64,000 bases of DNA from Escherichia coli (GCF_016903815.1 NZ_CP069973.1), one strand, 5' to 3'; shown: positions 4,029-51,150, numbered from the stretch's first letter. A program made the numbers and translations. The notes: generated from the letters alone by a model not told the origin.

Positions 4029-4057
4029 TCGGATAAGGCGCTCGCGCCGCATCCGAC
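4029..4057. repeat. REP-like palindrome in lacY-lacA spacer
   Basis: GTCGGATAAGGCGCTCGCGCCGCATCCGAC. Confidence 0.7.
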
Positions 4058-4066
4058 ATTGATTGC

Positions 4067-5365
<1,299 letters not shown>

Positions 5366-19086: not shown

Positions 19087-19173
19087 GACGCTATGCGCGT
19101 TTTATCATGCCTACGGCCTGCGGGCGAAATGTAGGCGGATAAGGCGTTCACGCCGCATCCGGCAGTCGTGCAC
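19087..19173. repeat. BIME: two inverted REP units between yaiL and frmB
   Basis: GCCTGATGCGACGCTATGCGCGTTTTATCATGCCTAC ... GTAGGCGGATAAGGCGTTCACGCCGCATCCGGC. Confidence 0.85.
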
Positions 19174-47187: not shown

Positions 47188-47472
47188 ATGCTTCAAAGTA
47201 ATGAGTACTTTTCCGGCAAAGTGAAATCGATCGGCTTTTCCAGCAGCAGCACTGGTCGCGCCAGCGTGGGTGTTATGGTTGAAGGCGAATACACCTTCAG
47301 CACCGCTGAGCCGGAAGAGATGACGGTAATCAGTGGCGCGCTGAATGTGTTACTGCCTGACGCGACCGACTGGCAAGTGTATGAAGCCGGTTCGGTGTTT
47401 AATGTTCCCGGTCACAGTGAGTTTCATCTGCAAGTTGCCGAACCCACCTCTTATCTGTGCCGCTATCTGTAA
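47188..47472 (+). CDS. ppnP: Pyrimidine/purine nucleoside phosphorylase PpnP (YaiE)
   Basis: 94 aa [17 protein letters not shown]... Confidence 0.92.
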
Positions 47473-47679
47473 TTCCTCGCCTTCCCCTTGAACGGGAGGG
47501 CATTTTTCTGAAATGTTCTCTCATAAACCCATAATAATATTTCCTTTGCTGCGATTTTTTCGATTTCCGATATATTCATAATTCATCAAGGTTGATATAA
47601 ATATCAGCGAAGATCTCCAGATATTGTTGCGGAACTGGCGACGATAAAAGATAAATCAGATGATGAATGGTGGCGTGCA

Positions 47680-47961
47680 TTGCTGCAAAGTCGCAATGAT
47701 CATTTGCGCCAAACGGCATTGCGCAACGCACATACCCCGGCGTCGTTGTTAACGGCATTGACTGAGCCTCAGGATCGGGCGTTGGTTATTAATAATCCAC
47801 AGTTGGCTGCCGATGTGAAAACGATGTGGTTAAAAGATGATCCATCATTACTCTTATTTGTCGATCAACCCGATCTTTCGCTGTTACGTGATTTAGTGAA
47901 AACCGGGGCAACGCGGAAAATTCGCAGTGAAGCGCGTCACCGGCTTGAGGAAAAACAATGA
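47680..47961 (+). CDS. Hypothetical protein, possibly ykiA-like
   Basis: 93 aa ORF from the six-frame track in the ppnP-rdgC spacer; no recognisable domain; identity not verified. Confidence 0.3.
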   Translation: MLQSRNDHLRQTALRNAHTPASLLTALTEPQDRALVINNPQLAADVKTMWLKDDPSLLLFVDQPDLSLLRDLVKTGATRKIRSEARHRLEEKQ

Positions 47962-48047
47962 CACAACGCCCATGGAGCAAGTTACAGCGTAAAACGCATA
48001 ATATTGCTGCGCTAAAAATTATTGCCCGCCGTAGCGAATAATTATAT

Positions 48048-48102
48048 GCCTGGTGTGGCTTCGTACGCCGGATAAGACGCGGCAGGCGTCGCATCCGGCA
48101 TT
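48048..48102. repeat. REP-like palindromic unit downstream of the ykiA-like ORF and rdgC
   Basis: GCCTGGTGTGGCTTCGTACGCCGGATAAGACGCGGCAGGCGTCGCATCCGGCA. Confidence 0.7.
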
Positions 48103-48118
48103 AAAGGTAAATCAGCAA

Positions 48119-49030
48119 TTAACGTTGTGCTTCGCCACCTAATCCTTCAATCAGGTTTTGAATTAACGCTGCCAGTTCACCAGTCATCAGGATGAAATCG
48201 GCATCAAAACGCTGGGCGAAATCTTCACGGTCGATATCTTCGTTTTGATCGCGCAGCTCGTCGCAGAACTTCAGACGCTTGAGCGAACCATCGTCGCACA
48301 TCACAAACTGAATGCGCTGCTGCCAGTCGAGCGCCAGTTTAGTCACCACTTTTCCGGCTTCAATGTGATTGGTGATCTCTTCGCTGGTCAGATCTTGTTT
48401 CTTCGCGCGGATCACTCCACCATCTTCCAGCAGCGATTTCAGCTCGGCTTCATCAAGCAGCTGGAAGCCCTGTGCCGCGCTGCCGGAGCGTACCCATTCG
48501 GTCAGCGTCAGTTCAATCGGGTTTTCCATGCTCAATGGTACAACCGGTAACGACCCCAGGCTTTTACGCAGTAATGCCAGCGTATCTTCCGCTTTTTTGG
48601 CACTGGCGCAGTCCACCATAATCAAACCGTTAACCGTGTCGATCCACATCATTGTCTGGCTAAAACGGCTGAAAGCACGTGGCAGCAGAGAGTGCAGCAC
48701 TTCGTCTTTCAGCGAATCTTTTTCGGTTTTCTTCAGCTTACGCGCCTGTTCCGCTTCCAGTTTGGCGATTTTCGCTTCCAGCGCCTGTTTAATCACCGGA
48801 GACGGGAGGATTTTTTCTTCTTTGCGCGCGCAGATAACAATTTGACCATTGGCAACGTGCGTTAACGCATCGCTGTGCGATCCCATCGGAGGAACCCAGC
48901 CCATCTTCGCCATGTCCTGGCTGCCGCATGGGGTAAATGCCATCGAGGCTAGCTGTTTTTCCATCTCTTCTGCACGCAACGAAATCTCGCGGCTAAGACG
49001 GTAAACCATTAAATTTTTGAACCACAGCAT
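48119..49030 (-). CDS. rdgC: Recombination-associated protein RdgC
   Basis: 303 aa from [27 protein letters not shown]... Confidence 0.95.
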
Positions 49031-50106: not shown

Positions 50107-50740
<634 letters not shown>

Positions 50741-50753
<13 letters not shown>

Positions 50754-51034
50754 TGTTTTGCCACTGAACTTAACCGGGCAGCTACCCGGGGTAGAGACTC
50801 AGAATGCCCGAGAGCATAAAGAACCACGCAAAGTTTATCTTCAGGAGAATAGCTACGCCTGTGTCTGCAATCCAGTGCCCGAGGACCGTGAAGAAGAAAA
50901 AGATTAATCCAGTGTGAGAGGCTGGTGTGAGAAAGTTGAAAGAGTTTTGCCGTAGAAATGATGCCTGCATGACCAGCCAGGTAATGATTTACAGCGGCAA
51001 GTTTTACTTCAAATGAATGTTTCATAAACTGCAC
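50741..51034 (-). pseudogene. IS3-family OrfA (HTH) fragment, C-terminally truncated
   Basis: 97 aa MQFMKHSFEVKLAAVNHYLAGHAGIISTAKLF... resembling IS150-type OrfA N-terminus; no frameshift window or leucine zipper remains. Confidence 0.7.
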
Positions 51035-51076: not shown

Positions 51077-51150
51077 TGACGCGTCTTATCAGGCCTACAA
51101 AATGTGCCAGAACCGCGTAGGGCGGATAAGGCGTTCACGCCGCATCCGGC
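51077..51150. repeat. Right half of the split REP plus a second REP unit (BIME)
   Basis: TGACGCGTCTTATCAGGCCTAC ... GTAGGGCGGATAAGGCGTTCACGCCGCATCCGGCA. Confidence 0.75.

Follow-up and report, generated by a model that had tools for sequence, protein, structure and literature searches.

The ykiA–ykiD locus of Escherichia coli as a probable deletion remnant of a two-gene cassette between ppnP and rdgC

In Escherichia coli K-12, the gene ppnP is followed by ykiA (b0392), ykiD, a REP element and rdgC. The intergenic region between ppnP and ykiA contains a ykiA promoter mapped by 5'-RACE, which is described as weak on its own and activated by the BglJ-RcsB heteromer; the BglJ-RcsB regulon also includes the rhs and molR loci (PMC3950696). 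In MG1655 grown in rich medium, chromosomal SPA tagging detected the ykiD product, whose entry in that small-protein paper carries no comment on its origin (PMC6001520). Both features are already known, ykiA as an annotated pseudogene and YkiD as an annotated small protein that was also detected experimentally. Here we add the explicit derivation of YkiD from an SF0329-family gene, together with a series of alleles documenting the decay of the locus.

The DNA analysed here, referred to as the window, is a stretch of 64,000 nucleotides of the E. coli chromosome with the order aroL-yaiA-aroM-ppnP-ykiA-ykiD-REP-rdgC (minus strand)-mak. It contains the same locus as K-12 under the same RefSeq annotation, with no structural difference; over 47400-48200 the two alleles differ by about 3% point substitutions, more than in the flanks. 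An 801-bp segment around ykiA and ykiD shows 100% identity with strain 7/2 (NZ_CP023820) and 97% with K-12, and finds matches in 5,424 of the 5,426 complete E. coli genomes. In the RefSeq annotation of strain 7/2, which is identical in sequence, and likewise of K-12, ykiA is a pseudogene at 47620-47961 (+) labelled 'DUF2773 domain-containing protein; incomplete; missing N-terminus', and ykiD is a 27-codon gene at 47958-48041 (+) labelled 'protein YkiD' (WP_120795376.1). Upstream, ppnP ends at 47472 (RefSeq), and a terminator scan placed its intrinsic terminator, an 8-bp GC-rich stem followed by a T-run, at 47479-47501 (+).

A preliminary description of this DNA had reported a 93-codon ORF at 47680-47961 (+) ending in GAA AAA CAA TGA, and an ATG at 47958 that overlaps this stop codon (ATGA, 47958-47961) and opens a 27-codon ORF; both are present as described. 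The product of the short ORF (47958-48041), MTQRPWSKLQRKTHNIAALKIIARRSE, is indeed basic, with a computed pI of 12 and a net charge of about +5.6, and is identical at 27/27 residues to the K-12 sequence in Table 1 of PMC6001520; a cluster look-up returned the UniProt name YKID_ECOLI. The REP element that had been placed past this ORF was also recovered, as a palindrome (GCCGGATAAGACGC/GCGTCGCATCCGGC), at 48067-48099, 26 nt after the stop codon and before the convergent rdgC, and it occupies the same site in the intact alleles described below. Its core occurs in 4 copies in the window versus 0 expected when a variable-gap pattern is used, and a fixed-spacing REP pattern found no match in the window; an Rfam scan of 47300-48300 returned only a sub-threshold naRNA4/REP match. 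Further REP palindromes sharing this core lie at 4031-4054, 19137-19160 and 51124-51147 (-), and the one at 51124 adjoins a fragment of IS1397. This fragment belongs to an insertion at 50139-51025 (-) in the mak-araJ interval, which comprises an IS3-family IS1397 transposase fragment lacking its N-terminus and a helix-turn-helix ORF, and which is absent from O157 and BS-04.

The boundaries drawn for the longer ORF hold only in part. The 93-codon version is a putative unit obtained by translation from the first TTG of the ykiA frame, and this TTG at 47680 is simply the first canonical start within a longer frame that is open from 47596, with homology to a parent gene starting at 47614/47620. 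Translation of 47596-47958 matched PF10971 (DUF2773) over profile positions 1-81 of the 81-position HMM, with an E-value of 1.8e-42 and 143.8 bits against a gathering cut-off of 25 bits; the earlier statement that neither ORF has a recognisable domain thus fails for the long one. Comparison with intact alleles revealed that ykiA consists of the last ~113-115 codons plus the stop codon of a 2,280-bp gene encoding a 759-aa DUF2773 protein, and that it shares 95.4% identity with the 3' part of this gene in O157 (positions 2501-2870 of our O157 allele, L003). Only codons 357-362 and 651-759 survive from the 759-codon gene and the ATG has been deleted, so that ykiA has neither the native start nor the N-terminal domains of a full-length DUF2773-type gene.

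The preliminary description had suggested looking for a longer intact ancestor, and a longer intact counterpart is found at the same locus in a few lineages, among them O157:H7 and WL297. The ppnP-rdgC interval of O157:H7 harbours the 2,280-bp DUF2773 gene (759 aa) followed by a 450-bp SF0329-family gene (149 aa). The divergent E. coli strain WL297 (~93% nucleotide identity) carries a pair encoding 759 and 151 aa, with an SF0329 protein ending in ...RRKTHNIAALKIIARRSE. In addition, Escherichia sp. E4930 has a 759-aa gene with 73% amino-acid identity between ppnP and rdgC. The intact O157 cassette (L003 563-3288) is AT-rich, with 36-48% GC versus 50-57% in its flanks, a composition that fits horizontally acquired DNA.

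Alignment of the window against the O157 allele resolved the locus into ordered segments. Positions 47400-47614 correspond to L003 347-561 at 97.2% identity, covering the ppnP 3' end and the cassette upstream region to within 1-2 nt of the ATG; the part at 47473-47613 (+) is collinear with the O157 upstream region and represents the kept 5' regulatory region of the ancestral cassette. Positions 47620-47989 correspond to the last 342 bp of the DUF2773 gene and the first 32 nt of the SF0329 gene, and 47980-48200 to the last ~56 nt of the SF0329 gene, the REP element and rdgC. Between the two junctions in the DUF2773 gene lies an 18-nt island at 47614-47631 (+), TCTCCAGATATTGTTGCG, which matches L003 1631-1648 at 18/18 nt and encodes SPDIVA, that is, codons 357-362 of the intact gene; the deletion coordinates around it were worked out from the nucleotide alignments to L003. 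Upstream of the island, 1,070 bp including the start codon are missing, and a second deletion removed 864 bp (288 codons, in frame) bounded by the near-identical 12-mers GATATTGTTGCG and GATATTTTTGCG, so that the DUF2773 gene of the window has lost 1,934 bp in all. The ATGA overlap is the same in the intact O157:H7 and WL297 pairs as in the window; by this sequence comparison it is not a chance arrangement and was inherited unchanged from the intact two-gene cassette.

The short ORF has a similar origin. YkiD is an in-frame fusion of residues 1-11 and 136-151 of the 151-aa SF0329-family protein: 47958-47989 aligns to the first 32 nt, and 47980-48041 to the last ~56 nt, of the SF0329 gene in O157, WL297 and CREC-544. 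The two BLAST segments share exactly the 10 nt at 47980-47989 (+), which are the one copy left of an imperfect direct repeat of 10 bp (AGTTACAGCG / AGTTACGGCG) flanking a deletion of 372 bp (124 codons, in frame; codons 12-135). The orthologous position and the collinearity at both ends establish descent of ykiD from the SF0329 gene. At 27 aa, YkiD is too short for a profile match, and it matched neither the Pfam nor the NCBIfam HMMs, including those of the SF0329 family (PF25753 / NF049912), on which the intact SF0329 protein of a neighbour allele scores 81.4 and 93.7 bits, respectively. YkiD is a derivative of the SF0329 family, not a member of it. A 30-sequence alignment gave the family C-terminal consensus RKTHNxAAxKVIxxR, which indicates that the tail of YkiD is native; the O157 tail NYCPP results from a later +1A frameshift (A5-to-A6, L003 3255-3288) that replaced the last 7 residues, IIARRSE. 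This frameshift removes the family-invariant R149, so that the O157 copy may itself be impaired despite being classed as 'intact'.

As to the parent families, the AF2 model of the 759-aa DUF2773 protein (pLDDT 90) comprises a beta-solenoid (residues 68-176) and a long alpha-solenoid (residues 240-758), preceded by an N-terminal hydrophobic helix that we predicted, by inspection, to be a signal peptide. The PF10971 label covers only the last 81 residues of this protein, and the ykiA remnant would amount to only the last 4-5 helices of the predicted ~500-residue alpha-solenoid. The family has 171 representatives, mostly of 750-820 aa (746-819 aa among intact relatives), and relatives carry LRV/HEAT Pfam repeats; PDB matches of the model were generic HEAT/ARM solenoids only and gave no functional clue. 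SF0329 homologues gave 550 matches across phyla at ~55-69% identity, and the AF2 model of SF0329 (pLDDT 87), a compact alpha/beta fold, had no solved structural relative that we could find. A search of the PDB by sequence found no relative, a literature search on SF0329, DUF2773 and their Pfam accessions returned nothing relevant, and PADLOC returned no match for either intact protein, which leaves the pair unmatched to any known defence or TA model. An obligate toxin/immunity-like pair was considered and rejected, since DUF2773 relatives stand alone in other taxa and no constant neighbour recurs in eight SF0329 contexts. Some SF0329 homologues are found in integrase-linked small-gene arrays (with Imm10, Macro or SUKH-3), or beside RM/Abi/BREX-like genes, a weak hint at a role in conflict/immunity islands. 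The SF0329 parent family thus combines ~60% identity across phyla and a confident AF2 model with an occurrence in variable or immunity-like islands.

A survey of the 5,426 complete genomes separated several classes of alleles. The K-12-like allele accounts for ~4,490 genomes (83%); a large DUF2773 segment is kept in 447 (8%) and the SF0329 interior in 921. A chimeric query retrieved an intermediate allele in 54 of the 5,426 genomes, which combines a ykiA junction identical to that of the window with a full 151-aa SF0329 gene; in one of them, CREC-544, the junction agrees base for base and the ykiA remnant contains an internal stop (W to stop). The existence of this allele indicates that the DUF2773 gene (gene 1) was gutted before the SF0329 gene (gene 2), and that the K-12 type and the IAI1/NN5 type are two derived states that arose afterwards. 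In a third class of ~420 genomes, typified by IAI1 and NN5, the rest of ykiA has been deleted down to the SF0329 ATG and SF0329 carries a +1 frameshift at codon 5; BS-04, of the same class, shows further SF0329 frameshifts and stops. In Escherichia sp. E4930 (positions 5270-5345 of its locus, L023), SF0329 has undergone a second in-frame internal deletion with a different junction, leaving a 21-codon ORF, MRLRRKTHNIAALKIIIRRSE, which also overlaps the upstream stop as ATGA behind a 759-aa gene that is intact there. The chance probability of two in-frame deletion outcomes is ~1/9, which is not significant. The E4930 deletion and the frameshifts in other lineages fit a repeated decay of SF0329 in Escherichia.

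We then compared sequence variation in the remnants with that in their surroundings, using 10 K-12-like alleles picked at regular intervals along the identity ranking and segments of 27 to 109 codons. The pN/pS ratio is 0.54-0.57 for ykiA and 0.39 for ykiD, compared with ratios of 0.02 in ppnP and 0.04 in rdgC; ykiA and ykiD have a nucleotide diversity of 0.048 and 0.059, respectively, versus 0.013-0.016 in the flanking segments, which makes the remnant 3-4 times as diverse as the flanking genes. The counts of nonsynonymous and synonymous segregating sites, 29:17 in ykiA and 7:3 in ykiD, differ from the 4:23 of the flanks (Fisher p = 7e-5 and 0.003, respectively). Between the intact alleles of O157 and WL297, pN/pS is 0.19 for DUF2773 and 0.04 for SF0329, and the rise from the latter value to 0.39 in ykiD indicates that constraint on the reading frame has collapsed in the remnant. 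Furthermore, pN is ~6 times higher for ykiD among K-12-like alleles (0.034) than between the deeply split intact SF0329 genes (0.006). The ykiA frame carries an indel of 3 bp as well as a 1-bp insertion near its 5' end, the latter in a single allele. As to conservation of the frames across strains, which had been put forward as a check, no premature stop occurs in the 93-codon ORF or in ykiD among the 10 K-12-like alleles, and the ykiD ATG and frame are kept in >80% of E. coli genomes. By their ratios relative to the flanks, both remnants evolve almost neutrally in this small sample. That pN/pS among the 10 alleles remains below 1, at 0.4-0.6, could reflect either weak residual constraint or variation recombined in from intact alleles.

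Expression of the remnants can be rationalized by the parts of the cassette that survive. Given the ppnP terminator, ykiA and ykiD need a promoter of their own, retained from the cassette, and a sequence scan found a candidate sigma-70-like promoter at 47508-47535. A Shine-Dalgarno sequence, GAGG, lies at 47947-47950 (+), 7 nt 5' of the ykiD ATG, with a predicted SD/anti-SD duplex energy of -6.2 kcal/mol, a value that falls inside the span of the real genes nearby (-3.1 to -9.3). It is identical in O157, where it serves as the ribosome-binding site of SF0329 and lies within the 3' end of the gene upstream, and was thus inherited. Since ykiD has this Shine-Dalgarno sequence, coupling is not needed, and YkiD would start on it rather than by coupling. 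The claim that the two ORFs are translationally coupled is accordingly the part of the preliminary description that found no support: the stop/start overlap of a coupled pair is there, but the ykiA start is lost, ykiD has its own ribosome-binding site, and in the intermediate allele SF0329 stays intact behind a stop-bearing ykiA. Coupling belongs to the history of the intact cassette.

Taken together, these data lead us to propose, with a probability of about 90%, that both ORFs were left behind by deletions in an AT-rich cassette of two genes, which ancestral Escherichia carried between ppnP and rdgC; the guess that a larger decayed gene lay behind the arrangement was correct, and the alignments to intact alleles extend it to both ORFs. 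The opposite polarity, in which the locus began with the short arrangement and gained the long DUF2773 and SF0329 cassette by a later insertion or expansion, might be favoured by the horizontally acquired look of the AT-rich cassette and by the minority status of the long allele, present in 8% of genomes. The short allele, however, holds ordered in-frame fragments of both genes, among them the 18-nt island, which stems from the middle of gene 1, and the two ends of gene 2, a pattern that no insertion can create. Moreover, SF0329 is full-length across phyla at ~60% identity, which makes the 151-aa form the family norm, gene 1 is intact at the same locus in the distinct lineage E4930, and the intermediate allele exists. 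These observations argue for deletion rather than insertion, and the deletions would represent the derived state; we assign the insertion reading a negligible probability and consider it effectively refuted by the junction structure. Accepting the deletions, one might still regard the ykiA ORF (93 aa or longer) as a real, if truncated, gene whose translation starts at TTG 47680 and yields a free-standing DUF2773 helical-repeat domain, with ATGA coupling it to ykiD in a two-small-protein operon. The TTG has an SD-like GGUGG 6 nt upstream (predicted duplex energy -6.0 kcal/mol), the frame from 47680 to the stop is open in 10/10 K-12-like alleles, the promoter is active and regulated, and ATGA is the classical arrangement for coupling. 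Coupling from this TTG is nevertheless unsupported, given that ykiA has no start of its own, although the GGUGG may allow for it. The native start codon and signal peptide have been deleted, RefSeq lists a pseudogene, and the pN/pS of 0.54-0.57, the 29:17 sites and the indels near the 5' end speak against a maintained protein, as do the internal stop in the intermediate allele, the loss of the whole remnant in ~420 IAI1-type genomes, and the few helices that would be left of the predicted solenoid. Literature searches found no published detection of a ykiA product. We thus judge a translated ykiA to be very improbable, and the earlier alternative of a small-protein pair stands only insofar as YkiD is translated in K-12 (SPA tag), with no evidence found for translation of the ykiA remnant.

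A more specific question is whether YkiD, which is produced, has been selectively retained as a functional micro-protein that keeps the end motifs of SF0329 and either binds the family partner or ligand or acts alone. Besides its production in K-12, this view can draw on the in-frame deletion that spares the two best-conserved end motifs of the family (WSKLQR at the N-terminus and, at the C-terminus, the basic helix RKTHNxAAxKxIxxR), on the presence of the ORF in ~83% of E. coli genomes, on a pN/pS of 0.39, below 1, and on the independent in-frame deletion in E4930, which also keeps the ATG and the same C-terminal 20 residues. The polymorphism data point the other way, with 7:3 segregating sites against 4:23 in the flanks and the ~6 times higher pN than between intact SF0329 genes. 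Five YkiD variants each occur in at least 1,000 contigs, namely the reference, R11H, T13K, L19Q+K20N, and R11H+K20R+R25C with the last codon lost; common variants alter SF0329-invariant positions (K144N/R, R149C) or truncate the peptide, and rarer ones change W6, L9, K144 or R149 (family numbering). In addition, two in-frame deletions are not a significant coincidence, the same gene is frameshifted elsewhere (IAI1, NN5, BS-04 and the O157 tail) in keeping with general decay, and only 27 of the 151 residues of a compact alpha/beta fold are left. Detection of a tagged protein demonstrates translation and is neutral on function. On balance, a functional YkiD seems unlikely, with a slim chance of being right, and YkiD probably has no function. 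We give similarly little credence to the idea that YkiD-type mini-ORFs of the K-12 type and of E4930 are convergently retained fragments in which a start codon is fused to the basic C-terminal helix of SF0329 (...RKTHNIAALKII.RRSE); if it were true, a 21-27-aa remnant of a widely conserved orphan-fold protein would keep partial or dominant-negative activity.

On the deletion-remnant reading, we propose a putative two-step model for the origin of the locus. Initially, on the branch from which most E. coli descend, the 1,070-bp and 864-bp deletions would have stripped gene 1 of its start and 85% of its coding sequence, yielding ykiA. Afterwards, the 372-bp in-frame deletion between the 10-bp imperfect repeats would have taken codons 12-135 of gene 2, leaving the 27-codon ykiD. 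Because the promoter region and the gene 2 Shine-Dalgarno sequence and ATG survive, the scar is still transcribed and YkiD still made; the simplest mechanism would be leftover transcription combined with autonomous initiation at the inherited ribosome-binding site. The remnants would since have drifted almost neutrally, most probably without a function of their own. YkiD, a 'validated' small protein of K-12, would thereby be a translated, near-neutral deletion scar, a case in which an epitope-tag or ribosome signal does not imply function. The natural series from the intact cassette through deletion of gene 1 to deletion or frameshift of gene 2 offers a worked example of stepwise decay and a lineage marker for E. 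coli.

In comparison with known systems, the window matches the cassette of O157:H7, WL297 and Shigella flexneri (locus tag SF0329) in position, upstream region, ATGA overlap, Shine-Dalgarno sequence and downstream REP element, and differs from it by the loss of 1,934 bp from gene 1 and of 372 bp from gene 2. With coupled overlapping pairs (ATGA/TGATG) of the trpB-trpA type, ykiA and ykiD share the 4-nt stop/start overlap, the common strand and a Shine-Dalgarno sequence within the upstream ORF, but ykiA is a pseudogene without a native start codon. The arrangement is also reminiscent of small ORFs derived from pseudogenes, which YkiD resembles in being translated, in taking its promoter, Shine-Dalgarno sequence and ATG from a disabled parent, and in its near-neutral evolution; YkiD is distinct from them in that it is an in-frame fusion of the N-terminus and the C-terminus of its parent, rather than a frameshifted or truncated N-terminal fragment.
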